Positions 1 to 56,112 of a DNA stretch of 64,000 bases are shown one piece after another; positions within the stretch are counted from its first letter, which is position 1, and every line of letters starts with the position of its first letter. Below the pieces are notes generated by a model. It was not told the origin of the DNA. It saw nothing but the letters and a program-made list of their open reading frames with translations, and searched no databases. Made by a program: the position numbers and the translations under genes. The DNA comes from a virus, in IMG/VR virus record IMGVR_UViG_3300010396_000037. One strand, written 5' to 3'.

Positions 1-1428
1 CCATTAAAGAAAGACGTGGGCGAGAAGAACCAATCTATTGTAGGTGGTTATGTCAAAAACCCAAATCCTGGTATGTATCATTGGGTTGTAACCTTTGACG
101 CGTCATCCCTGTACCCTTCTTTGATTCGACAATTGAATATCAGTCCAGAGACACTTCAGGGTGTAATGTATTCTGTCGACAGGTCTGACTTAGATGGTAG
201 TGGTTGGGAAGAAGCGAGGGCGTTGGCTCAAGAAAACAATTGGACGATTGCTTCTAATGGCGCAGCTTTTGATGTTGAAAGAAGTGGATGTCTACCAGAA
301 TTGATGTACATCTATTATCAGAAAAAGAATGATGCGTCAAAACTTCAAATTGAAGCAGAAAAAGAGTTACAGCTGAAACCTGGTGATAAGGAATTAGAAC
401 TTCGCATTCAGAATCTGAAGTCAAAGATATTCGCAACCAAGGTGCTACTCAATTCTTGTTTCGGTGCAACATCTAATCCTTACTTCCAGTTCTCTGACGA
501 TAGAATCGCGGAAGCAATTACAACTTCAGGTCAGACGTTGATTCAGACCGCTGCAAAAAGAGTCAATGCACAATTTTGCAAGATCATGAAAAGCAATCGT
601 GATTACATTATTGCTTCTGATACAGACTCAATTATTGTGGATTGTTCTTCAATTGTTGAAGCTGCCAAATGGAATGGTTCTTTGAATCCAACTGCGTCTG
701 TTGAAGAAACAACCAAGTTCCTCAATAGATTGTGCGAAGCTAAACTGAACCCATTGCTTGATGAAATCATGGATGAGATAGTTAGCAAGACTCATGCTCG
801 TGAAAAAGCAGTGTTCATGGTGCGTGAAGCAATTTGCGACACAGTAGTTTGGGTGGCTGCTAAGAATTACATGATGCGCATTTGGAACAACAAAGGCGTC
901 ACATACAAGAATCCTAAATACAAGATCATGGGTCTTGAAGCTGTTCGTTCTACCACTCCAACTGCTTGTAGAAAAGCTTTGAAGCATTCAATTGAATTGA
1001 TACTAGATGAAAATCAACAGGGATTGTTAGATTACATAGAGGAATTCAAGAAAGTATTTTGGAACTCTGATTATTCTGAAGTCAGTAAGAACATTAGCGT
1101 GAGATTTGGTTCACCTGTTGTTACTCAACAGATCAGAGCAGCAACAGTGTATAACAATGCCATCAAAGAAAGAAATTTGGAAAATCTCTATTCTTTGATA
1201 TCACATGGTAGTAAAATACGCCTCTTGCATCTAAAGAAACCAAATCCATTGGGGTCTGATATTATTGGATTCCCAGAAGGCAAGCTTCCAAAGGAATTTG
1301 GAATTGACAAGTATATTGACAAAGAACAAATGTTTGAAAAGACATTCATGGTTCCGCTTGAAAAGATGGTTAAAGCAGGTGGAATGAGTATTAAGCAAGA
1401 AGATTCATTGTCTGCATTTTTTGTTTGA
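1..1428 (+). CDS. 43: Family B DNA polymerase (gp43), C-terminal part, truncated by the window edge
   Basis: Motifs FDASSLYPS, KVLLNSCFG, SDTDS, KIMGLEAVRSTTP. The frame is open back to base 1. Ends SLSAFFV, a clamp-binding-like peptide. Confidence 0.95.
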   Translation, partial: PLKKDVGEKNQSIVGGYVKNPNPGMYHWVVTFDASSLYPSLIRQLNISPETLQGVMYSVDRSDLDGSGWEEARALAQENNWTIASNGAAFDVERSGCLPELMYIYYQKKNDASKLQIEAEKELQLKPGDKELELRIQNLKSKIFATKVLLNSCFGATSNPYFQFSDDRIAEAITTSGQTLIQTAAKRVNAQFCKIMKSNRDYIIASDTDSIIVDCSSIVEAAKWNGSLNPTASVEETTKFLNRLCEAKLNPLLDEIMDEIVSKTHAREKAVFMVREAICDTVVWVAAKNYMMRIWNNKGVTYKNPKYKIMGLEAVRSTTPTACRKALKHSIELILDENQQGLLDYIEEFKKVFWNSDYSEVSKNISVRFGSPVVTQQIRAATVYNNAIKERNLENLYSLISHGSKIRLLHLKKPNPLGSDIIGFPEGKLPKEFGIDKYIDKEQMFEKTFMVPLEKMVKAGGMSIKQEDSLSAFFV

Positions 1429-1437
1429 GGATTAGAT

Positions 1438-2484
1438 ATGGCAAATGTTGAATTACTGAAAAGATTAAAAGCAGCATCAACTATTGATGAAACATCAATG
1501 CTGGAAGATTCAGTGGTGTTTCAGAAAAAGGATTTGGTTCAGACTCCTGTTCCAATGTTGAATGTTGCATTATCAGGCATGCTGGATGGCGGATTTGCTT
1601 CTGGCTTGACGGTATTTGCGGGTGAGAGCAAAAGGTTCAAGACTATGTATGTCTTGATTTGTGCTGCTGCTTATCTGAAGAAATATCCTGATTCTGTTCT
1701 TTTGTTTTATGATTCTGAATTTGGTACTCCACAATCATATTTCAGTTCACTTGGTATTCCTCTGGATAGAGTGATTCATACACCTATTACAACTGTTGAA
1801 CAATTGCGTTCAGATATAGCCAATCAGTTGAATGCTATCAAGAAAGGAGACAGAATTTTCATTGCAGTTGATTCTGTAGGAAATCTTGCGTCTGCAAAAG
1901 AAGTCAATGATGCCTTAGACGAGAAGTCCGTAGCAGATATGACACGCGCCAAACAATTGAAGTCTCTCTTTCGTATTATCACTCCACAGTTGACATTGAA
2001 AGATGTTCCATGTTTTGTTGTTAATCATACTTACAAAACCATGGAGCTTTATTCCAAAGATGTTGTATCTGGCGGAACAGGTGTTTATTATAGCTCTGAT
2101 AACATCTTTATTATTGGTCGACAACAAGAAAAAGAAAAAGATAAATTGTCTGGTTTTAATTTCATTATTAATGTAGAGAAGTCACGTTTTGTAAAGGAAA
2201 AGAGTAAAATACCGATTAGTGTTTCTTTTGAGCATGGTATGCAAAAGAATTCTGGATTGCTTGAATTGGCTCTTGAGTTGAATTATGTAACTTCGCCAAA
2301 ATTGGGACAATATGCTTTCGTGAATCGCAAGACTGGTGAAGTAGAAGATAAGACATTCAAAAAGACCGAAACCACTAAACCAGAATTTTCCAAACGTTTG
2401 TTGGATGATGTTGATTTTCAAGAAGCTGTTAAGGATAAGTTTCAGATTGCTAGGACAGCTCTGTTTAAGAATGATGAGGAATAA
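1438..2484 (+). CDS. uvsX: RecA-like recombinase UvsX
   Basis: AGESKRFKT P-loop, FYDSEFG, DSVGNLAS, DMTRAK, VVSGGTG; lies between gp43 and gp41. Confidence 0.95.
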   Translation: MANVELLKRLKAASTIDETSMLEDSVVFQKKDLVQTPVPMLNVALSGMLDGGFASGLTVFAGESKRFKTMYVLICAAAYLKKYPDSVLLFYDSEFGTPQSYFSSLGIPLDRVIHTPITTVEQLRSDIANQLNAIKKGDRIFIAVDSVGNLASAKEVNDALDEKSVADMTRAKQLKSLFRIITPQLTLKDVPCFVVNHTYKTMELYSKDVVSGGTGVYYSSDNIFIIGRQQEKEKDKLSGFNFIINVEKSRFVKEKSKIPISVSFEHGMQKNSGLLELALELNYVTSPKLGQYAFVNRKTGEVEDKTFKKTETTKPEFSKRLLDDVDFQEAVKDKFQIARTALFKNDEE

Positions 2485-2486
2485 GA

Positions 2487-3902
2487 ATGCCACAACCAAT
2501 CGAAGTTGAAATTTTAAACGGTTTGGTGTTTGATTCGGAGTTTGCTAAGCTTGCTTTGCCGCACTTTGAAGATGAATATTTTTCTGATGATGGTACAAGA
2601 ACAGTTTTGAGCCTTGCTCGTGATTATATTGGTAAGTACGGAAGTCAACCAACGATTGATGCTTTAGCAATTGATCTGCAATCTGTAAAAGAGTTGACAC
2701 AGGACCAGTTTGAAGGTGCTAAGAATGTTATTCAAGAATTGAAACCGAGTGAAACTGACTACAAATGGCTGGTAGATAAAGCTGAAGGATTCTGCCAAGA
2801 TCGTGCTTTGTATCTTGGTATCATGCAAGCCATTCACATTGTTGATGGTAAGGAAACCAAGCATGGTATCTCTAAAGGAGCAATTCCTGACTTACTGCAA
2901 AAGGCATTGGCTGTCAATTTTGATCGTTCCATAGGTCATGATTACTTTTCTCAAGCTGATGCTCGTTTTGCATTCTATCATAATGATGAAGAACACATAC
3001 CATTTGATCTGGAGATGCTCAACCGCATCACCAAAGGTGGTTTGTACCGCAAGACTTTAAATGTTTTCACCGCTGCACCAGGAGTTGGTAAAACTCTGAC
3101 AATGTGCCATATGGCTGCATCATATGTTGCATCTGGTTTGAAAGTTCTATACATCACAATGGAAATGTCTGAAGAAAGGATTGCTCAGAGAATTGACGCG
3201 AACTTACTTGATGTATCCTTGAATGAGATAGAAAATATTTCTAGAGCGGATTTTGATTCCAGAGTGCAAAGAGCACGTTCCAGAATGACGGGTGATATAG
3301 TCATCAAAGAATTCCCGACTGGTGGTGGAAACGTCAATCATTTCAGACATTTACTTTCTGAATTGGACCAGAAGAAGAGATTCAAACCGGATGTTATCTT
3401 CGTTGACTATATGAATATTTGTTCATCAGCCCGTTACCGTAATGGCGATGGAGCAAATAGTTATTCTGTCGTGAAAGCTATTGCTGAAGAGTTGAGAGGC
3501 ATGGCGGTTGAATTCAATGTTCCCGTTGTTACAGCAACACAGTTTAACCGTGAAGGAGCGGGTTCGTCTGATCCTGAAATGACGAATACATCAGACAGCT
3601 TCGGAACACCCATGACGGCTGACTTGCAATTGGCAATCTACTCTACTCCAGACCTGGATGAACAGGGTAAGTTGGTTATCAAGCAATTGAAGAATCGCTA
3701 CAATGATAAGACAGAATACAAGAAGTTTCTGTTAAGAGTGGATAAGAGCAAAATGCGTTTGATGGATGATGATGTGCTGGAAGGATACTCAACTTCTTTG
3801 TCTGATAAGGAAAAGAAGAACATTGAAGAAATGTCTAATGCTCGCAAACCAACACATGATGAAAAATCATTTGGTGGGTTTGATTTTGGAGAGGATGAAT
3901 AA
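2487..3902 (+). CDS. 41: Replicative DnaB-like helicase gp41
   Basis: APGVGKT Walker A, YITMEMSEERIAQRIDANL, VDYMNI, AEELRG, TATQFNR, KQLKNRY. Confidence 0.95.
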   Translation: MPQPIEVEILNGLVFDSEFAKLALPHFEDEYFSDDGTRTVLSLARDYIGKYGSQPTIDALAIDLQSVKELTQDQFEGAKNVIQELKPSETDYKWLVDKAEGFCQDRALYLGIMQAIHIVDGKETKHGISKGAIPDLLQKALAVNFDRSIGHDYFSQADARFAFYHNDEEHIPFDLEMLNRITKGGLYRKTLNVFTAAPGVGKTLTMCHMAASYVASGLKVLYITMEMSEERIAQRIDANLLDVSLNEIENISRADFDSRVQRARSRMTGDIVIKEFPTGGGNVNHFRHLLSELDQKKRFKPDVIFVDYMNICSSARYRNGDGANSYSVVKAIAEELRGMAVEFNVPVVTATQFNREGAGSSDPEMTNTSDSFGTPMTADLQLAIYSTPDLDEQGKLVIKQLKNRYNDKTEYKKFLLRVDKSKMRLMDDDVLEGYSTSLSDKEKKNIEEMSNARKPTHDEKSFGGFDFGEDE

Positions 3903-3903
3903 T

Positions 3904-5085
3904 ATGCGCGTATGTGTACTCTATTGGCCTATCAGTGGTGTGGGTGGTATCTCAACTTTCATGAAGCATATGAAAGCAGTCGCAGATGATCGTGGAGATA
4001 CATTCCATGTTCTCTGTTCGCCAAATCAGAAAGGTAAAGAAGTTGGGTTATTGCCAGAAGCAACTGAAGTGGCTGGTGGTTCATCTAACATCTTGATTGA
4101 TGGATATGTGCCGCATCATCCATCTAACTTCGAGAAGTCCGCTGATTTCATCGCCAAGAATTATGACGTGGTTCTAACAGCCCATTTATGTCCAAGACCT
4201 AACAAGTCTTATGGTGAAGAACCCGTTTTCTTAAATCTTCTGAATGAATTGCATGCAAAAAATGTTAGAATGATTGGATTCATTCATGATGGGTATTGGG
4301 ACACTTACAAGGAGTTCGGCATTCCAACTCTTGAGTTAATGCAGAAAACAATTATTGCGCAGCCAACTTATGCCAAACCAATTCTAACAGAAAAACACTA
4401 TCCAATTGAACCAACTTATCTGGCCATTCATCCACGAATTCTAGAAGCCAATAAACTTGAAGGCGATCAAAGAAATCGTAAGCGCGTTGTCTGGTTGCCA
4501 CAATGGAAGCGCATCAAAGGTACACACCTGATGCTACAAGGACTTCCTGAGGCAGAACAGATAGGATATGATGTACATCTTTATGGATGCGGCATTGATT
4601 ATTACAACGCATGTTTGGAAGATAGCTGGAAGAAGATGATTGGTAAAGATCTATTCCGTCCAGATTGTTCTGGCCAAGGAACAGCAACTTATTTCGGTAC
4701 AAGACCATACAACGAAGTTTCTGTTGCTTTACAACAAGCAACTTTCTCACTAGATTTCCAAGGTCACAGTGCAAAATATAAGACTGCATATGAAACTGGT
4801 TCTTACAATTATACTCATCTTGAAAGTCTATATTGGGGATGCGTACCTGTTGTGCATAAAAATTTCTTGAAGAATGACATACCAGATGATTTGGTTCTTG
4901 CTCTTGACCACCCTGAAATGTGGGCAAACGCCATCAAGAAGTATTGTAGCTTTAATTACCCAACCGAAAAAGCCAGGGAGTATGTATTGGAACATCATTC
5001 TGCTACAAGGCATTATGACCAGACATTTTCAATGGAATGTAAAGAGATTAAGGAAGAAGGTGGTCTTTCGGCATTCTTTGTATGA
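3904..5085 (+). CDS. GT-B fold glycosyltransferase, putative DNA-modifying
   Basis: N-terminal beta strand plus GVGGISTF; KRIKG and YTHLESLYWGCVPVV (GT4-like nucleotide-sugar-binding segment). The start at 3904 follows GAGGA. Ends GLSAFFV. Confidence 0.75.
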   Translation: MRVCVLYWPISGVGGISTFMKHMKAVADDRGDTFHVLCSPNQKGKEVGLLPEATEVAGGSSNILIDGYVPHHPSNFEKSADFIAKNYDVVLTAHLCPRPNKSYGEEPVFLNLLNELHAKNVRMIGFIHDGYWDTYKEFGIPTLELMQKTIIAQPTYAKPILTEKHYPIEPTYLAIHPRILEANKLEGDQRNRKRVVWLPQWKRIKGTHLMLQGLPEAEQIGYDVHLYGCGIDYYNACLEDSWKKMIGKDLFRPDCSGQGTATYFGTRPYNEVSVALQQATFSLDFQGHSAKYKTAYETGSYNYTHLESLYWGCVPVVHKNFLKNDIPDDLVLALDHPEMWANAIKKYCSFNYPTEKAREYVLEHHSATRHYDQTFSMECKEIKEEGGLSAFFV

Positions 5086-5462
5086 ATCGTTGGACTTACA
5101 ATGGTTTTGACTATGATGAATCTAAAGGAGCATTCGGATTCATCTATTTGATTACAAATCTTGAAACAGGCAAAATGTACGTCGGTAAGAAAAGTTTCAA
5201 GAGATGGGATGGAGAAGAGAGCGATTGGAGAACATATCATGGCTCATGTAAGAGTCTGAATGAAGACCTGCGTGAAAAGAACTCTTTGAAGAGAGAGATT
5301 CTCTACATTTGTGAAACTGAAGAAGAAATGGATAAACTGGAAATTGAAGAGCAATTAAAGCGTGATGTTGTGAATGATCCTAGATATTACAATCGCAGAG
5401 TTGGGGATAGATTTCTAGGCATGAAACGTGTGAATGGTAGGCTACAGAAGAAAACAGCATGA
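5082..5462 (+). CDS. Small GIY-YIG (Seg-like) nuclease, catalytic domain only
   Basis: FGFIYLITN..GKMYVGKK, YHGS, REIL, E..Q, YYN. Confidence 0.75.
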   Translation: MNRWTYNGFDYDESKGAFGFIYLITNLETGKMYVGKKSFKRWDGEESDWRTYHGSCKSLNEDLREKNSLKREILYICETEEEMDKLEIEEQLKRDVVNDPRYYNRRVGDRFLGMKRVNGRLQKKTA

Positions 5463-5524
5463 AACGTGTGGTAGATAACACTAAACCAGTGAAGATTGTT
5501 ATAGAGCCTCATGCAGACAATTAG
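5459..5524 (+). pseudogene. Orphaned original N-terminus of the PIG-L deacetylase (MKRVVDNTKPVKIVIEPHADN*)
   Basis: Translated by hand. The ATG overlaps the upstream stop (ATGA), and the ORF encodes a canonical IVIEPHAD motif before stopping at the start of the endonuclease cassette. Confidence 0.7.
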
Positions 5525-5563
5525 AGAAAGTATAAATATCTTCAATTGAATAGAGGATATTTT

Positions 5564-6322
5564 ATGAAGGAGTGGATATATAAAGGCGAAGAATTAGCAC
5601 AAGTTCCTGGCAATGCATTTGGATTTATCTATTGCATAACTAATGTTAATTCTGGGCAGAAATATATAGGCCGAAAACAATTTGTCACCCAAAAAGGAGT
5701 AGAAACAAATTGGAAAACTTATTTTGGGTCTAGTATGCATTTGTCTAAAGATGTAGAAAAATTAGGCAAAAAATGTTTTCTTAGGGAAATTATTAGCGTT
5801 CACTCATCTAATTCAGAATTGTGTGAAGCGGAAGTGACGGAACAAGAGAATAGAAATGTTCTGTATGAAATTTTACCCAATGGCGAAAGAGCATATTACA
5901 ACAGATGTATAAAAGGCAAAGAATTTTATATCAATATGTTGGAGAAATGGCAAGACCCAGAGTACAGGAAGCATCAAGAAGAAATGCATAAAGAAACATG
6001 GAAAAATCCAGACTATAGGAAGAGGATGTCTGATGCTCATAAAGGACAAGTCCAATGGAATTTAGGATTAAAAGGAACGCAACCTGTTACAGAAGAATTA
6101 AGAGCAAAGAGAAGAAAGTTATCCAGACAACTGTGGAATGATCCAGTTTATAGAGAAAATTGTTTGAATGCCTGTAAATCAGAGGATCGAAGAAAGAAGT
6201 TGTCTGATGCCCATAAGGGTAAAAAATGGATAACTAATGGCAGCAGAAGCGTTCTGTTTAGAGGAGAAAATCTCCCAGAAGGTTACAGATATGGCAGGAA
6301 ATATTCCCCAAATAGTTTGTGA
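5564..6322 (+). mobile_element. Free-standing GIY-YIG homing endonuclease with NUMOD3-like DNA-binding repeats
   Basis: FGFIYCITN..GQKYIGRK, YFGS; repeats RKRMSDAHKG and RKKLSDAHKG; KWITNG tail; AT-rich; own TATAAATA promoter at 5531 and GAGGA RBS. Confidence 0.85.
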
Positions 6323-6857
6323 AACCCATGCCGATGATGCCTTTTTGAGTATGGGGCAGCATTTAGAAGATTGGCATAAACAAAGGATTCCTACAGCTAT
6401 TGTTACAGTTTTCAGTGGTACTAGAAAGAGAGCTGTAGATGCACAGAAATACGCAGATGCTGTAGGAGCAAAATGGGAAGGTTGGGGGTTTGTAGAAGGG
6501 GAACCATTACCCAATGATCTTTCTATGTATTTGCAAAATTCAAAAATATCTTTATTTCCTTTCTCGGAAAGTGTTGAATGGTATATAAATCTTGCTCTAA
6601 CACACCCGGAACATAAGAGGGTAAGAGAGTTGCTGGAACCTGCGGCAGCTGGAATGTATGTTGATCAGCCTTATGCTATCACACAAAAGAATGCTCCTAT
6701 TGTAACAGAACTCATGAAAGGAAGAACAGTTCTGAGTTACAAACATCCTGGGAAGCGTAAGTATCGCCACATTCCTCTGTTCAAAGACCAATCAAAGTTC
6801 TTTTATTTCAACAATGAAGAGAAACTTCTTCAGACCTTTGAAATGATCGTCCAATAA
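6291..6857 (+). CDS. PIG-L/LmbE-family de-N-acetylase
   Basis: HADDAFLSMG (HxDD), VTVFSG, R..D...ADAVGA, THPEH (HxxH), Y.DQPYA. The ATG at 6291 lies inside the endonuclease 3' end. Confidence 0.75.
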   Translation: MAGNIPQIVCETHADDAFLSMGQHLEDWHKQRIPTAIVTVFSGTRKRAVDAQKYADAVGAKWEGWGFVEGEPLPNDLSMYLQNSKISLFPFSESVEWYINLALTHPEHKRVRELLEPAAAGMYVDQPYAITQKNAPIVTELMKGRTVLSYKHPGKRKYRHIPLFKDQSKFFYFNNEEKLLQTFEMIVQ

Positions 6858-6885
6858 ATAAAATAGTTATTTACATAGAGACAGA

Positions 6886-7440
6886 ATGATGAAGACTTTC
6901 ACTGAATTCTTGGTAGAATCTTCCTTCACCCACGATAGGAAAGAATATGAAAGTCATCCTTTCCTGAAATCTAAAGGACTAACCAGATTGCGCAATGGCG
7001 CAAAAATTGTCGACAGTGATGATGGATCAATCTATCATGATCATTCTTCTAAAAATCCTCATGTAGTATATGCGTTCAAACAAGATGGCGAACATCATGT
7101 GCATGTTTATCCTGGAGATCCTAGATCAACAGAACCCACACATGCTGGAGTCGGCAAAACTCCAACCGAAGCAATGAATAATTTGAAACCTTTCAAACAG
7201 TATGCCAAGAAATATTTAGATGAGTCTGTTCTGAAGGAATTCCATCCAACGCCTGCTGGAAAGGAAGTTCCTGGGGCCGAGAGTGATCAAGGCGCTGAGA
7301 AATATGTCAAACAAGTGAATGGCAAGTGGGCACTGGTTTCACGTCATACTGGTCGTCCATTGAAATATTTTGATAGCAAACCTTCTCGTGAAGAGGCTGG
7401 CAAAGCTCTCCGCACGGTTGAATACTTCAAACACTCTTAA
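6886..7440 (+). CDS. Putative internal head protein with a T4 IP-like capsid-targeting N-terminus
   Basis: MKTFTEFLVE resembles the T4 internal-protein leader MKTYQEFIAE; internal LDE/LKE sites; His-rich; AATAAATA upstream. Confidence 0.6.
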   Translation: MMKTFTEFLVESSFTHDRKEYESHPFLKSKGLTRLRNGAKIVDSDDGSIYHDHSSKNPHVVYAFKQDGEHHVHVYPGDPRSTEPTHAGVGKTPTEAMNNLKPFKQYAKKYLDESVLKEFHPTPAGKEVPGAESDQGAEKYVKQVNGKWALVSRHTGRPLKYFDSKPSREEAGKALRTVEYFKHS

Positions 7441-7489
7441 TTTTGAATCAAACTGGCTTACACTAAACTTTTCCTAGTTGGAGGAGTTT

Positions 7490-7711
7490 ATGAGTCTGCC
7501 CAAAATTGAATTATGGAATCAGTCTCCAACTGAATTCAGTTATACAACTGAAAATAATGTAAGATATATGATAATCCCACTCCAACATACTGGAAAGCGG
7601 AGTTTAAGGATTTTTGATCCGCATGTATTGGGATGGAAATCTTTTGGACCATATGATACTACTAAGCAAGCTTATCAGGCAGCTTGCGAGTATGACAACA
7701 CACATGCCTGA
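7490..7711 (+). CDS. Hypothetical protein
   Basis: ORF with GGAGG RBS, downstream of a TTTTGA-N12-TACACT promoter. Confidence 0.55.
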   Translation: MSLPKIELWNQSPTEFSYTTENNVRYMIIPLQHTGKRSLRIFDPHVLGWKSFGPYDTTKQAYQAACEYDNTHA

Positions 7712-7733
7712 AACACACACATAGGAGAAACAA

Positions 7734-8009
7734 ATGAATAGTAAATCACAAACGCCGTATGAACTTAGAGCAGAACTTCTGAAGCGCGCCATTGACTTGG
7801 TCACTTATCAGACAGATGCAAATTATCAATATGCATTGGAGAATTTCAATAATGTTGCTCGTCTCATTGAATATTCCAATCAATTGAAGGATGAAGGATT
7901 TGTTGAAGCCAAGAAGCAGTTAGAAATGGCTAAAGATGGTTACAAGAGCATTATGTCTGCAGCGTTGGAAATGGCCGAATCCATGAATGCGTTCGTTTCC
8001 AAGAACTAA
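7734..8009 (+). CDS. Hypothetical protein (TPYELRAELLK family, common in T4-like phages)
   Basis: ORF with AGGAG RBS; recognisable N-terminal motif. Confidence 0.55.
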   Translation: MNSKSQTPYELRAELLKRAIDLVTYQTDANYQYALENFNNVARLIEYSNQLKDEGFVEAKKQLEMAKDGYKSIMSAALEMAESMNAFVSKN

Positions 8010-8560
8010 TGAACATAGCTGGAATTGATTGGAGTATGACTTCACCCGCTATCTGCATTGCAGATAGCGGTTATCCTTTTTGTTATGAGGATTGTAGATT
8101 TCATTTTTTCAGCAAGAAGGCTGATGATACAATCCAGCTTTTGCCTTATGATCCAATCCCAGCTTGGGACTCGCAGGAAGAAAGATTTCATTGGTATTCT
8201 AATTGGGCTCTAGATATTCTTTGGTTCTACAGAGTCAAGAAAGTAGTGATAGAAGGATATGCGTTTGGTTCTTCATCTGGTCTTGTCTTCAATATCGGGG
8301 AATCAACAGGTGCTTTGAAACAGATGATGTGGAAGAAGGGAATAGAATTTGAGACTGTTCCACCAACTGTTGTAAAGAAATTTGCGACAGGCAAAGGAAA
8401 CGCCAACAAGGACAAATTAAGAGAGCAGTTTGAAACAGAAAGTGGTTACACGCAGCTCAAAGCAGTGTTACATGAAACTGAAAAGCAGAACAATCCGTCA
8501 TCAGATATAGTGGATTCATATTTCATTTGTAAATATCTGTGGACACAGGTAAATTCTTGA
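8009..8560 (+). CDS. RuvC-like Holliday junction resolvase
   Basis: GIDWS, VIEGYAF, GE.TG.LK, PT.VKKFATGKGNA.K, DIVDS. Confidence 0.8.
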   Translation: MNIAGIDWSMTSPAICIADSGYPFCYEDCRFHFFSKKADDTIQLLPYDPIPAWDSQEERFHWYSNWALDILWFYRVKKVVIEGYAFGSSSGLVFNIGESTGALKQMMWKKGIEFETVPPTVVKKFATGKGNANKDKLREQFETESGYTQLKAVLHETEKQNNPSSDIVDSYFICKYLWTQVNS

Positions 8561-8664
8561 TTTTGTGGGTTTCTAATTCAATAAAATTAATGACTTAGGG
8601 ACGCTGTAAACTCTAACCCACACTACCCTACATTTCGTTCCTAAATCAACTGAATTTGACGTTT

Positions 8665-8925
8665 ATGACAGTCTATGTAGACAATATGCAGGCACAGTTC
8701 AAAAGAATGACAATGTGTCATATGTTGGCTGATACTACAGAAGAACTGTTAGAAATGGCTGATAAGATTGGAGTTGCTAGGAAGTGGTTACAGAAAGCTG
8801 GCACTTTGCATGAGCATTTTGATATTTGTATATCTAAGCGTAAACTAGCTGTTCAAGCAGGAGCCAGAGAAATAACATTGAGGCAGACTGGCGAACTGAT
8901 TCATAAAAAACGTGAACAGTTGTGA
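8665..8925 (+). CDS. DUF4031-family protein
   Basis: VYVD, CHMLADT.EEL..MA..IG...W.Q, HFDI..SKR.LAV.AGA. Confidence 0.75.
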   Translation: MTVYVDNMQAQFKRMTMCHMLADTTEELLEMADKIGVARKWLQKAGTLHEHFDICISKRKLAVQAGAREITLRQTGELIHKKREQL

Positions 8926-8968
8926 TTTAACAATCGTTAAGGTTAGAGTGATGAAAATGAGTTATACT
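8926..8968 (+). promoter_or_regulatory. Early-type promoter TTAAC-N4-GTTAA-N21/22-TAnnnT (also at about 50302, 56157, 58723, 59856, 61044, 61572)
   Basis: Seven intergenic copies with a fixed spacing to a -10 hexamer, each upstream of an RBS and ORF. Confidence 0.8.
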
Positions 8969-8999
8969 AAGTCGTTCCCCACTTTGAGAGGCTATCATA

Positions 9000-10049
9000 A
9001 TGGCTAACCGTGCTGCGGTTATGGATAGGCTGTATGGTTCTGAACCTCTTGTCATCAATGCGCAAGGCATTGAACTGATCAAGCTGATGAACTGGTACAA
9101 TATGAATGCTGAACCAGAAGATCGTCGCAAGTGGATCGTTGACTATGCTAAGAACAGACTGCACTACAGTGATACTGATTTGTCTTTGTTGTCAGGAGCT
9201 GCTTTGCAGATGGTTCAAACCATTCCATATTGCGCTCGCGCTATATTGAAAGGTAGCACATTTCATGATCAATTGAATGTGGTCAATTTGATTGACAATA
9301 CTTGTAAGGAAGTGGTTCAGAAAGCTCGCGCCAGTTACAATGAAAACCATTCTCAACGTGAGCAAAATAGAATCCGTTCTGAAATGGTCAGGAAAGTTAT
9401 TGTCTCAAACGCCTACTGGAACATTTTCGATCAGTTGGAAAATGGCAAGGGTGATGTTAAGCTGACTGCGCTGTCAGAACTGACGATACCTGAAATGGAG
9501 CGCATCAAAACTCACATTGAGTCTTCTTTGAATGAATACAAAGAAGCCAAGAATGATCCAGAAGGTTATGAGTGCATCAATTTTAGGGCCATGATCAAAC
9601 GTCTTGAAAAGACGCTCGATGATATCAATCAACAGACCAGCACTGTAAAGGCTCGCAAGAAAGTCACAGTGATCAGGAAGCATAAGCCTATCAGTGCGGC
9701 AAAGCAAGTCTCCAAGTTGCGGTATGCCAAGGAGATAGATGGCTTCAAGTCTGTGAATCCGGAAGCCATACTGACTGCCAGCTTGTTGTTTGTTTATGAT
9801 GAAAAGACCAGGAAACTGGTTAAGTTTCAGAATCCTGACGGCACGAAACTGGCGATCGCCAGCAGCAAGGTTAAGGCCCACACTATTACAGCCAGGACAG
9901 TTCGCAAGCCTTCGCTCGTGCTTACAGAGATGCGTAAAGGCACTATCAAGACAGCTGAAAGAGTGTATGAAACACTTACCACCAAAGAACAAGTTCACAG
10001 TGGGCGTCTGACTGACAAATGCTTAATTTTGCGGGTCAATGCGGTATAA
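9000..10049 (+). CDS. Conserved hypothetical T4-like phage protein, early promoter
   Basis: Long ORF with LMNWYN N-terminal motif and basic C-terminus (RTVRKP...GRL..CLILR); palindrome-box promoter upstream. Confidence 0.6.
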   Translation: MANRAAVMDRLYGSEPLVINAQGIELIKLMNWYNMNAEPEDRRKWIVDYAKNRLHYSDTDLSLLSGAALQMVQTIPYCARAILKGSTFHDQLNVVNLIDNTCKEVVQKARASYNENHSQREQNRIRSEMVRKVIVSNAYWNIFDQLENGKGDVKLTALSELTIPEMERIKTHIESSLNEYKEAKNDPEGYECINFRAMIKRLEKTLDDINQQTSTVKARKKVTVIRKHKPISAAKQVSKLRYAKEIDGFKSVNPEAILTASLLFVYDEKTRKLVKFQNPDGTKLAIASSKVKAHTITARTVRKPSLVLTEMRKGTIKTAERVYETLTTKEQVHSGRLTDKCLILRVNAV

Positions 10050-11318: not shown

Positions 11319-11761
11319 TTAGAAAAGCAATGGGCTCTATTATCAAACAAGTTTGTGGCTTGAAGAATGACGCTGAAAAGATTTCATTTCTAAGACAGAA
11401 TTGTAGTGCACCCCAATTCAAGACAGTCTTGTGGCTATGGACTACAGACAAAGTTCATTTTAATCTCCCTGAAGGCAAACCCCCCTATGACCACAAGAAT
11501 GATGGTTATGATGAAGGAGCCGAAGAAGAAATTTTGTACATGGAGGCACGTAAACTAATAAACGTGACTGACCATGGTGTGATGAAACACCAGCACAAAT
11601 TTAAGCGTGAACAGTGGTTTATTGATTTGATAAAGGATGTTCATCCGGATGATGCTGACTTGTTGTGTTGGGTCAAGGATAAGACATTTCCTGATGGTCT
11701 CAATAGAAATATCATTATGAAAGCGATTCCCTCCCTTAAGAGCATGGATAATTCATGTTGA
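11315..11761 (+). CDS. Conserved hypothetical protein found after rnh in T4-like phages
   Basis: LPEG.PPY, KRE..FI.L...VHP.DA.LL..VKDK. Confidence 0.6.
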   Translation: MIRKAMGSIIKQVCGLKNDAEKISFLRQNCSAPQFKTVLWLWTTDKVHFNLPEGKPPYDHKNDGYDEGAEEEILYMEARKLINVTDHGVMKHQHKFKREQWFIDLIKDVHPDDADLLCWVKDKTFPDGLNRNIIMKAIPSLKSMDNSC

Positions 11762-12612
11762 AAATAATTACTGATGTTGATGGTGTGTTGTTAGACTGGT
11801 TTAATGGATTTGAAAAGTGGATCACTGAAGTCAAGGGCGTGAAGCCCACTCATGATGCCACACCGTCAATGTATAAATTGACGGATAAATATCCGTTCAC
11901 AAGTAAGGAAATAGTTAAACTGATTGAAGAGTTTAATAGCAGTCCTTATTTCGGTGAATTGAAGCCAATTGATGGCTCTGTAGAGTTTCTCAAAAAGCTT
12001 CTTGAAGATAATACCAAAGAAGTAGCTTGGCTTTCTGCTGGTTCAGTTGCAGGTCAAGAAGAATTATGTTTTGATATGCGCGCTAATAACCTAAAGGAAT
12101 GCTTTGGAACTGATATTACAGGCACCCTTTTAGTCATGGACACACCCAAAGACGCTTACCTAGAAAAATACAAAGAAGAAATGGGTGATAGTCTGGTTTT
12201 CATAGAAGATTCTTTGAGTCATGCTGAAACTGCGATTAAACTTGGTATCAGAACCATTCTGCTTGGAACCACTTACAATAACACCAAGAACAAATCAAAG
12301 CTGTTGTACAGAGCTGAAAGCTGGGAAAACATTTACAATATTATTGATAAAATTGAGAAGGAAATAGAGTATATGAACACGCATGTATCTCGTACTGGAC
12401 AAACTGCAAAACACTGGAAATATTTGAAAGAAAAGAAAGCAACCAATCCAACATACAAACATGTGAGTGCTGAAGTTTCAATGATTCCAAATCCATTGGG
12501 TGAAATGTTGCCGCCTATTCCAATGGTGTCTAGGCCAGGGAACACTTACAACATTGGGCGCAACAAGGCAAAACGTGAAAAGAAAGCGATGAGGAGAATC
12601 CAGAATGGATAA
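11755..12612 (+). CDS. HAD-family nucleotidase/phosphatase (T4 gp30.2-like) with a basic C-terminal extension
   Basis: TDVDGVLLDW (HAD motif I), FNSS, FIEDS (motif IV). Confidence 0.7.
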   Translation: MLKIITDVDGVLLDWFNGFEKWITEVKGVKPTHDATPSMYKLTDKYPFTSKEIVKLIEEFNSSPYFGELKPIDGSVEFLKKLLEDNTKEVAWLSAGSVAGQEELCFDMRANNLKECFGTDITGTLLVMDTPKDAYLEKYKEEMGDSLVFIEDSLSHAETAIKLGIRTILLGTTYNNTKNKSKLLYRAESWENIYNIIDKIEKEIEYMNTHVSRTGQTAKHWKYLKEKKATNPTYKHVSAEVSMIPNPLGEMLPPIPMVSRPGNTYNIGRNKAKREKKAMRRIQNG

Positions 12613-55395: not shown

Positions 55396-56112
55396 ATGTT
55401 CAAAACGATTGAAGAGTGCCAAGTAGAACTCATTGCACATACCAAGTCAGATAGAGTCAAACGTGATCCAGTTAATCTACAAAACTATGTGGAGTCAGAC
55501 ATGGATCATTTCCCTGCGCAAGCAGCGAGAGTCAGCTTTAACAACGATCAGACTGTATATGATGTGCAGAAGGATCAGAAACTTATTAATTATCTTGCAG
55601 CGCATGAACACTTAACTCCTTTTGAATACCAACATGCTACATTGATGATTGAATGCCCACTGTTTATTCGCAGCCAGATTCATCGCCATCGAACATTCAG
55701 CTACAATGAAATCAGTCGTCGTTACACCAGTGATGATCTTGACTTCTGGATTCCAACAGATTGGCACAAGCAGGCTATCAAAGACAAGCAAGGAAGCGAT
55801 GGTAACCTTCTAGAAGATGATCAAGATGCATTCCTGGACAGTGTTTATAAACAACAGTGCCTGACTGCTCTCGGTATCTACAACATTCTGATTGAGAATG
55901 AAGTTGCGCGTGAACAGGCACGTGCAGTTCTACCGCAGAGTCTGATGACTCGGTTCTACATGGCCGGCAATTTGAGGAATTGGGCGCACTTCTTGCAATT
56001 ACGTTTAGACTCTCACGCACAAGCTGAAATTCAAGTCATCGCGCATAAGTGCCATGTAATCTTGAACGAATTGTGGCCAACATCTTTGTCAGCTCTTATG
56101 AAGAAGAAATGA
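55396..56112 (+). CDS. thyX: Flavin-dependent thymidylate synthase
   Basis: AARVSF, H.TPFE, QIHRHRTFSYNEISRRY, REQARAVLP, LR..SHAQ.EI. Confidence 0.93.
   Translation: MFKTIEECQVELIAHTKSDRVKRDPVNLQNYVESDMDHFPAQAARVSFNNDQTVYDVQKDQKLINYLAAHEHLTPFEYQHATLMIECPLFIRSQIHRHRTFSYNEISRRYTSDDLDFWIPTDWHKQAIKDKQGSDGNLLEDDQDAFLDSVYKQQCLTALGIYNILIENEVAREQARAVLPQSLMTRFYMAGNLRNWAHFLQLRLDSHAQAEIQVIAHKCHVILNELWPTSLSALMKKK

Follow-up and report, generated by a model that had tools for sequence, protein, structure and literature searches.

A conserved glycosyltransferase and PIG-L deacetylase gene pair in uncultured phages and its predicted role in amino-sugar hypermodification of DNA

Phages classically counter host defence by glycosylating the hydroxymethyl-pyrimidines of their DNA. 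The DNA α-glucosyltransferase of T4 (AGT, CAZy GT72) transfers glucose from UDP-glucose to 5-hydroxymethylcytosine (5hmC), a base which is incorporated as a nucleotide. A different two-step chemistry is known from the enzyme pairs MshA/MshB, BshA/BshB, PIG-A/PIG-L and tGtfA-Orf2*/Dbv21 and the aminoglycoside pair BtrM/BtrD, in which a GT-B transferase of the GT4-like kind comes first and a zinc amidase of the PIG-L/LmbE type, bearing an HxDD...H triad, comes second. Here we analyzed a gene pair consisting of an apparent relative of AGT and a PIG-L enzyme, which is located at positions 3904–6857 of a 64,000-nucleotide stretch (the window) of the IMG/VR virus record IMGVR_UViG_3300010396_000037. 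The phage is T4-like, and we consider it fairly probable that both genes belong to one conserved module which hypermodifies the phage DNA with an amino sugar in two steps.

The glycosyltransferase gene (3904–5085, plus strand) encodes 393 amino acids (aa). Its ATG lies one base past the stop codon of the helicase gene and the homologue alignments begin at the same methionine. By itself the protein matches no Pfam or PHROGs family and, because such single-protein scans gave nothing usable, homologue profiles and predicted folds were used for the family assignment of both proteins. A word-indexed search yielded 12 homologues, while the family grew to 171 clusters at an expect value (E) ≤ 1e-3 once 1.84 billion cluster representatives had been searched exhaustively with a profile. 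As only 171 clusters were found among that many representatives, the family is by its profile small and distinct and can be separated from generic GT4 enzymes, even if the N-terminal half of some members matches Glyco_transf_4 and their C-terminal half Exostosin GT47. The AlphaFold model (predicted local distance difference test, pLDDT, 86) has a GT-B fold with two Rossmann-like domains and the nucleotide-sugar site in the C-terminal half. AGT is the top Foldseek match of this model (template modelling, TM, score 0.69, E 2e-13), which upholds the GT-B assignment made from the sequence alone. With the extended profile A4, built from 123 full-length sequences that the exhaustive search had gathered, AGT is also first among the PDB entries with E 1.6e-15 over the full length, followed by sucrose-phosphate synthase (8e-11) and BshA (1.6e-10), and the sequence identity to AGT is only 14–15%. 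We read the family as a putative sister family of AGT that may or may not belong to GT72 itself, and the protein is predicted to be a DNA hydroxymethyl-base N-acetylhexosaminyltransferase.

The second gene (6291–6857, plus strand) encodes a short metal-dependent de-N-acetylase of the PIG-L/LmbE type with 188 aa, for which the start at 6291 was preferred over the one at 6237 based on the 188-aa call in three public assemblies. The motifs HADD and HPEH, on which the sequence-only reading had relied, are both present within ETHADDAFLS and THPEH. Against Pfam PF02585 the single protein scores 18.3 bits, below the cut-off of 28.2. The family comprises at least 82 homologues of 170–200 aa, and most of those at 35–70% identity carry a recorded PF02585 match. 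Among 29 diverse members the residues E11, H13, D15, D16 and H108 (the second histidine of HPEH) are invariant, which we equate with the residues that bind the metal and serve as general base in MshB-type enzymes. A search of the PDB with the family profile gave Dbv21 (E 1.4e-9) and then Orf2* and BshB, the HxDD and histidine motifs being aligned with those of Dbv21 and Orf2*. The AlphaFold2 model (pLDDT 96) shows the LmbE-type Rossmann-like fold, and its Foldseek matches are Dbv21/Orf2*, diacetylchitobiose deacetylase, BshB and MshB, with nearly all of the top 30 being PIG-L enzymes and TM scores of up to 0.69. Profile match, fold and invariant residues thus bear out the PIG-L/LmbE assignment. 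All of the enzymes named deacetylate N-acetylglucosamine (GlcNAc) glycosides, and Dbv21 and Orf2* act on GlcNAc that is borne by a bulky aglycone. By analogy, the phage enzyme is predicted to remove the acetyl group from an N-acetylhexosamine on DNA. The clade also has C-terminal conserved motifs of its own, DQPY and FKDQ.KFF.

To take a broader look at the pair we scanned loci from IMG/VR, a species-genome collection and public assemblies and obtained 13 distinct glycosyltransferase loci (the window, L002–L011, L029 and L038). The PIG-L gene is found downstream on the same strand in all 13 of them, mostly in unrelated phages and in most cases overlapping or abutting. Longer gaps between the two genes hold a homing endonuclease and a methyltransferase (L003) or unannotated open reading frames (ORFs; L007 and L029). 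As the distant loci have essentially no genes in common with the window apart from the pair, glycosyltransferase and PIG-L are a module kept together across unrelated phages. The pairwise identities of the two proteins across 10 loci correlate moderately (Pearson 0.69, Spearman 0.37) and were not used as evidence. Among 50,697 deposited phage genomes neither protein has a tblastn match, and a megablast search of the same set returned no close relative of the region.

The partners of the module in other phages point to the thymidine derivatives of DNA. In eight loci (L003, L004, L005, L007, L009, L010, L011 and L029) the pair is contiguous with a 5-hydroxymethyl-deoxyuridine (5-hmdU) DNA kinase (PF18723, E 3e-35) and a protein of the thymidylate synthase (TS) family (PF00303, 330–400 aa), and six of these eight clusters also contain an HD phosphohydrolase. 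The 5-hmdU kinase, the TS-like gene and the HD hydrolase are hallmark genes of thymidine hypermodification via 5-hydroxymethyl-dU. All five phage records that were searched whole (G001–G005) encode the PF18723 kinase; in the two T4-like records G003 and G004 (loci L006, L008, L015, L016 and L044) it lies 30 kb from the pair, beside gp32. The amino-acid:DNA transferase PF18724, which normally uses the product of this kinase, was not found in G001–G005 by a search that had no positive control. G003 and G004 also carry a second GT4 gene directly after PIG-L, an NT5C-like nucleotidase and, a few genes downstream of it, a dCMP deaminase.

PIG-L homologues without this glycosyltransferase are found in a similar company. 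In L026 the homologue is flanked by the TET-associated glycosyltransferase PF20691, an NAD-dependent sugar epimerase/dehydratase and kinase, TS-like and HD genes. The 185,579 species genomes yielded no more than four loci, each on a contig of a metagenome-assembled genome (MAG). Among them, L038 again shows the glycosyltransferase together with PIG-L, and in L039 GT2 and GT4 genes flank PIG-L and an epimerase lies close by. The end of a 553-aa TET/JBP gene overlaps the start of the PIG-L homologue by 4 bases on an Actinomycetes MAG contig (L040:8352-10564), which is the tightest dioxygenase–deacetylase linkage we have seen. Because of these partners in L026 and L038–L040 and in the kinase/TS/HD loci, this PIG-L clade appears to be dedicated to DNA-base hypermodification clusters containing glycosyltransferases.

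In order to find the acceptor base we analyzed the content of the phage's own genome, which was read as DNA for positions 4588–144684 of the record of 152197 (92%) in the public contig Ga0134128_10000055 from the JGI soil metagenome 3300010373; near-identical contigs are present in other assemblies. The gene making the acceptor base had been expected outside of the window, and this is where its sole candidate is located, a TET/JBP dioxygenase of 451 aa (L020:2198-3553; Tet_JBP E 5e-20, above the cut-off). It follows directly after gp46, 11.3 kb before the window start and 13.8 kb upstream of the glycosyltransferase, and its HRD...H iron motif is intact. The dCMP or dUMP hydroxymethylase that had been suggested as the source is missing from positions 4588–144684, the dioxygenase being found instead. 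Profiles built from the relatives' proteins detected no 5-hmdU kinase, TS-like or HD gene in the same part of the record, nor are such genes in the precomputed Pfam lists, and the gene list covering the remainder of the genome has no 5-hmdU kinase. The precomputed Pfam lists of the contig also contain no DNA methyltransferase, and the catalytic motif IV of C5-methyltransferases (PCQxFS) is absent from all six frames of the 92%. The flavin-dependent thymidylate synthase ThyX (55396–56112, plus strand, Pfam Thy1; gene L032:3742-4458) means that the phage makes dTMP and has thymine in its DNA. As the genome holds a TET/JBP dioxygenase and ThyX and is devoid of the C5-methyltransferase motif, the acceptor is likely 5-hydroxymethyluracil (5hmU) that would be made on the DNA after replication. 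Phage TET/JBP enzymes without a neighbouring C5-methyltransferase have been described as T-dioxygenases, which produce post-replicative 5hmU and often adjoin glycosyltransferases and endonucleases (PMC13229309). In the simplest reading the relatives would mostly make 5hmU at the nucleotide level, and hydroxymethyl-uracil in DNA is what all contexts have in common. The absence of the kinase from this genome argues that the glycosyltransferase can use a free hydroxymethyl group.

A further GT4-type glycosyltransferase candidate (321 aa, Glycos_transf_1) appears in the gene list near dUTPase and gp32, about 1.8 kb past the end of L032. A 288-aa protein with a DSD motif (L020:5944-6810) was also considered as a glycosyltransferase, and as it matches no Pfam family and does not significantly resemble the TET-associated glycosyltransferase found in L026, it is an unverified candidate.

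A link between modification and replication is suggested by the C-terminal tail of the glycosyltransferase (...EGGLSAFFV, 5059–5085), whose last six residues are the same as those of the phage's own DNA polymerase (...EDSLSAFFV, 1402–1428). Similar tails are found in the dioxygenase (...TNLESFFA, L020:3527-3553) and in a gp33-like protein (...DSLKKFLK). The tail is kept in the two closest relatives of the glycosyltransferase (...SGLSAFFV in L002 and ...SLTSFFA in P0005) and missing in those that are not T4-like. In T4, gp43 ends with SLDFLFG and gp55 carries SLDFLY, and the gp45 clamp of T4 and RB69 is bound by peptides of this gp43/gp55 type; the glucosyltransferases of T4 itself (AGT and BGT) have no such tail. 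Since the dioxygenase and the glycosyltransferase both bear the clamp-type C-terminal peptide of the polymerase, they are probably carried along by the sliding clamp in the wake of the fork. A complex prediction for the gp45 clamp and the last 64 residues of the glycosyltransferase gave a score of 0.05 without controls and counts neither for nor against clamp binding.

Taking the folds together with the homologies, the conservation of the catalytic residues, the linkage of the genes and what the genome contains, we infer the following pathway. The TET/JBP-type dioxygenase would oxidise thymine in newly replicated DNA to 5hmU, and the AGT-like glycosyltransferase would then place an N-acetylhexosamine (HexNAc) on the hydroxymethyl group. 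The donor would most simply be GlcNAc from the UDP-GlcNAc of the host, and the linkage would be α if the enzyme retains the configuration like its relatives. In the second step PIG-L would remove the acetyl group and leave a protonatable 2-amino sugar on the base; both the order of the steps and the donor are proposed by analogy, because every known pair of GT4 and PIG-L works in this way. The glycan may be extended by the other two glycosyltransferase candidates of the genome. The phage would be expected to gain protection from restriction and other DNA-targeting defences as well as a partial neutralisation of charge. As a more specific and only tentative proposal, these uncultured, widespread phages may convert thymine to an α-linked 2-amino-2-deoxy-hexosyl-oxymethyl-uracil, with the dioxygenase and the glycosyltransferase of the T4-like lineage being tethered to the clamp via a copied polymerase tail. 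The hexosaminyl derivative of hmdU and hexosyl-hmdC are isomers of the formula C16H25N3O10 and can be distinguished by the base fragment. Compared to the sequence-only reading, a role in DNA hypermodification gained from AGT as the closest solved relative, from the strict co-occurrence of the pair in hydroxymethyl-uracil clusters and from the polymerase-type tail, whereas in place of a hydroxymethyl base made before replication as in T-even phages the genome points to post-replicative 5hmU.

Several findings weigh against this pathway. The fold alone cannot fix the acceptor, as BshA, PimA and MshA trail AGT by only about 3 Z units in the fold comparison. AGT was reached by the extended profile A4 alone and not by the strict profiles: the 46-member profile A3 has no PDB match, and the strict family profile aligns to AGT with an hhalign probability of only 15%, with the YTHLE motif aligned in both. 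The dioxygenase is 13.8 kb away from the pair and not adjacent to it, and about 8% of the genome was seen as a gene list only or, for positions 1–4587 of the record, not at all. Most relatives carry the 5-hmdU kinase and this genome does not, so the acceptor of the relatives may be the free hydroxymethyl group or a phosphate and the chemistry may differ here. In G003 and G004 neither PF00303 nor PF12851 has a match; the PF12851 search, made without positive control, gave no match in the records of the relatives. Finally, neither gene occurs in any cultured phage.

The kinase of the relatives leads directly to a different chemistry, in which the module acts via a phosphate: the sugar would be attached to phosphorylated 5hmU as a sugar-phosphate or as a displacement product, and the deacetylase would then free the amine. 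Its presence in five out of five whole records and in the cluster itself in eight loci would fit this, as would the missing PF18724 enzyme, even if that search had no positive control, and phosphate-linked sugars including GlcNAc have been proposed on thymidine derivatives of the phages Carin-5, YerA41 and SP-15 (PMC12686479). Yet the phage analyzed here shows no kinase in the 92% that was read as DNA or among the genes listed for the rest, and its glycosyltransferase is still 43–48% identical to those of the kinase-bearing phages, which makes a phosphate route unlikely. The same relatives bear on the question whether the module modifies 5hmC, as is the case in T-even phages and in TET-methyltransferase clusters. 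T4 AGT as nearest solved relative naturally acts on 5hmC, and both 5mC-oxidising phage TET enzymes and 5hmC glycosyltransferases are known (PMC8256090; bioRxiv 10.1101/2023.12.21.572611). However, the relatives couple the module to the 5-hmdU kinase, a uracil-specific marker, and there is no dCMP hydroxymethylase or TS-like gene and no C5-methyltransferase motif IV in the 92% of the genome and none in the Pfam lists, so that we regard cytosine as a very improbable target.

Two other explanations concern the sugar and the substrate as such. The model does not reveal which donor is used and T4 AGT takes UDP-glucose, so the glycosyltransferase could add a plain hexose to DNA, with PIG-L being unrelated, regulatory or an amidase for another substrate. 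This would leave unexplained why PIG-L follows the glycosyltransferase in each of the 13 loci with its catalytic residues invariant and why it accompanies other glycosyltransferase types and sugar-nucleotide epimerases where this glycosyltransferase is missing, and we give it little credence. The pair might also act off DNA on a small molecule or an envelope glycoconjugate such as a glucosamine-containing thiol or a cell-wall precursor, as BshA/BshB and MshA/MshB do, and its place in the replication operon would then be incidental. But T4 AGT comes first by fold as well as by profile, the glycosyltransferase ends in a polymerase-type tail, and the pair is nearly confined to phage contigs, where it lies inside DNA-hypermodification clusters. 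Moreover, in three of the four loci from the species genomes there is again this glycosyltransferase, a TET/JBP gene or glycosyltransferases of other kinds, and the neighbourhood has no third enzyme like a cysteine ligase; a role away from DNA is therefore unlikely. Thus, an amino sugar on the hydroxymethyl group of 5hmU is the reading that we prefer.

As described by the sequence-only reading, the pair lies directly after the genes for polymerase, UvsX and helicase and is parted only by GIY-YIG genes. The window opens within the gene of a gp43-type family B DNA polymerase (1–1428, plus strand, as are all following features; C-terminal 475 aa; DNA_pol_B E 7e-20), the complete gene of which, read in L001/L020, encodes 836 aa. 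It is followed by the UvsX recombinase (1438–2484; T4_UVSX_C E 8e-10, RecA E 8e-7) and the gp41-type DnaB replicative helicase (2487–3902; DnaB_C E 3e-23). The genes before the window are gp47, gp46, gp45, gp44, gp62 and RegA, and the virion genes within it include the gp23 capsid protein. A scan of positions 1–9000 for promoters and terminators showed no enrichment and no signal dividing the genes. Between the pair, a SegE-type GIY-YIG homing endonuclease of 126 aa (5082–5462; SegE_GIY-YIG E 2e-23), whose start is overlapped by the glycosyltransferase stop, is followed by a second SegE-type GIY-YIG endonuclease with NUMOD3 and 252 aa (5564–6322, alternative start 5546; SegE_GIY-YIG E 8e-28), the end of which overlaps the 188-codon PIG-L frame. 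The first of them has a counterpart in the 94%-identical relative L002 (L002:11209-11589) and none in distant relatives, and the second is missing in L002. As L002 holds one seg gene where the window holds two and relatives carry one or none, the GIY-YIG genes are, by this comparison, insertions into an ancestrally adjacent pair and not parts of the pathway, and this polymorphism beside a glycosyltransferase parallels segA next to β-gt in T4.

Some neighbouring genes should be mentioned as well. Directly 3' of PIG-L an ORF of 184 aa (6886–7440) has no Pfam or PHROG match and is missing at the same place in L002. A 349-aa protein (9000–10049) between a RuvC-like resolvase and RNase H is 70% identical in L002 and matches only PHROG 11903 of unknown function; as a candidate for the missing hydroxymethylase it was rejected because it shows no similarity to the TS-like proteins of the relatives. 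Positions 11755–12612 encode a putative 5'-deoxynucleotidase of 285 aa, HAD/NT5C-like and under the Pfam cut-off, and a clearer NT5C gene adjoins the 5-hmdU kinase in G003. Directly 5' of gp43 (L020:11778-12362) lies a 194-aa protein with a dATP/dGTP diphosphohydrolase N-terminal domain (PF18909, E 3e-24), which may serve to clean up purine nucleotides.

If the proposed pathway is true, an amino sugar would for the first time be part of a DNA base, and a PIG-L enzyme would for the first time have a nucleic acid as substrate. HexNAc on 5hmC, DNA glycosyltransferases of the GT-A and the β-GT-like GT-B type and T-dioxygenases have already been described, and recent studies have extended DNA glycosylation to many sugars. 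With a dedicated deacetylase a new class of chemistry would be added, in which DNA bears a cationic amino sugar. In the literature searched we found no mention of a PIG-L/LmbE enzyme or of a deacetylated sugar on DNA, which is a provisional statement as subscription literature was sparsely covered. An amino-sugar base should resist glucosyl-specific type IV nucleases, alter charge and packaging of the DNA and offer a free amine for DNA labelling. As the module is compact with two genes only and recurs with either known route to 5hmU, it should be directly testable by heterologous expression. The polymerase-type tail suggests how a post-replicative modification may keep pace with replication, an open question in the 2026 T-dioxygenase paper, and clamp tethering would keep the modification close to the fork and explain how a purely post-replicative hypermodification protects a lytic phage.

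Among the described systems, T4 AGT differs from the glycosyltransferase analyzed here in having neither a deacetylase partner nor a polymerase-type tail, and in place of its pre-formed 5hmC and UDP-glucose the phage enzyme would likely use post-replicative 5hmU and a UDP-HexNAc. The MshA/MshB-type pairs are alike in architecture and give strong fold matches, with BshA and MshA for the transferase and with Dbv21/Orf2*, BshB and MshB as the best ones for the deacetylase. They act on inositol, malate, phosphatidylinositol or antibiotic aglycones, whereas the phage pair stands in a context of DNA hypermodification, and MshB-type deacetylases have 230–300 aa compared to about 188 aa here. The pathways of phage 5mYOX (TET/JBP) enzymes and glycosyltransferases, treated by Burke in 2021, by Pyle in 2024 and in PNAS in 2026 (T-dioxygenases), and that of base J in trypanosomes share the TET/JBP dioxygenase in the same genome, glycosyltransferases and endonucleases nearby and the lack of a C5-methyltransferase, which is read by these authors as a sign of T to 5hmU oxidation. 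The papers searched on them mention neither a deacetylase nor PIG-L. The GT-B enzymes of the 5mYOX pathways resemble T4 β-GT, in contrast to the α-GT-like enzyme found here, and the genes of this phage lie scattered within a T4-type replication region, 14 kb apart at most, and do not form a compact cluster. In Carin-5 a gene block next to the DNA polymerase gene contains glycosyltransferases and an annotated polysaccharide deacetylase, and the oligosaccharide-modified thymidines of Carin-5, YerA41 and SP-15 bear glucose or GlcNAc (PMC12686479). No sequence relationship between such cultured phages and the pair was found, and the annotation given to the Carin-5 enzyme is polysaccharide deacetylase, not PIG-L, and in Carin-5, YerA41 and SP-15 the base linker is a (di)hydroxypentyl phosphate. 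A last comparison concerns the phages ViI, M6, PhiW-14 and SP10 with their clusters of 5-hmdU kinase and amino-acid:DNA transferase. Relatives of the pair adjoin the same PF18723 kinase, the dUMP-hydroxymethylase-like TS and the HD hydrolase and have no PF18724 match in the search without positive control, whereas the phage analyzed here lacks kinase, TS-like enzyme and HD hydrolase in the 92% of its genome that was read. These thymidine hypermodification clusters have reportedly been worked out by Lee et al. in 2018 and 2021, and the end product proposed here would likewise bear a free amine on the methyl carbon of thymine, coming from a sugar and not from an amino acid or polyamine.

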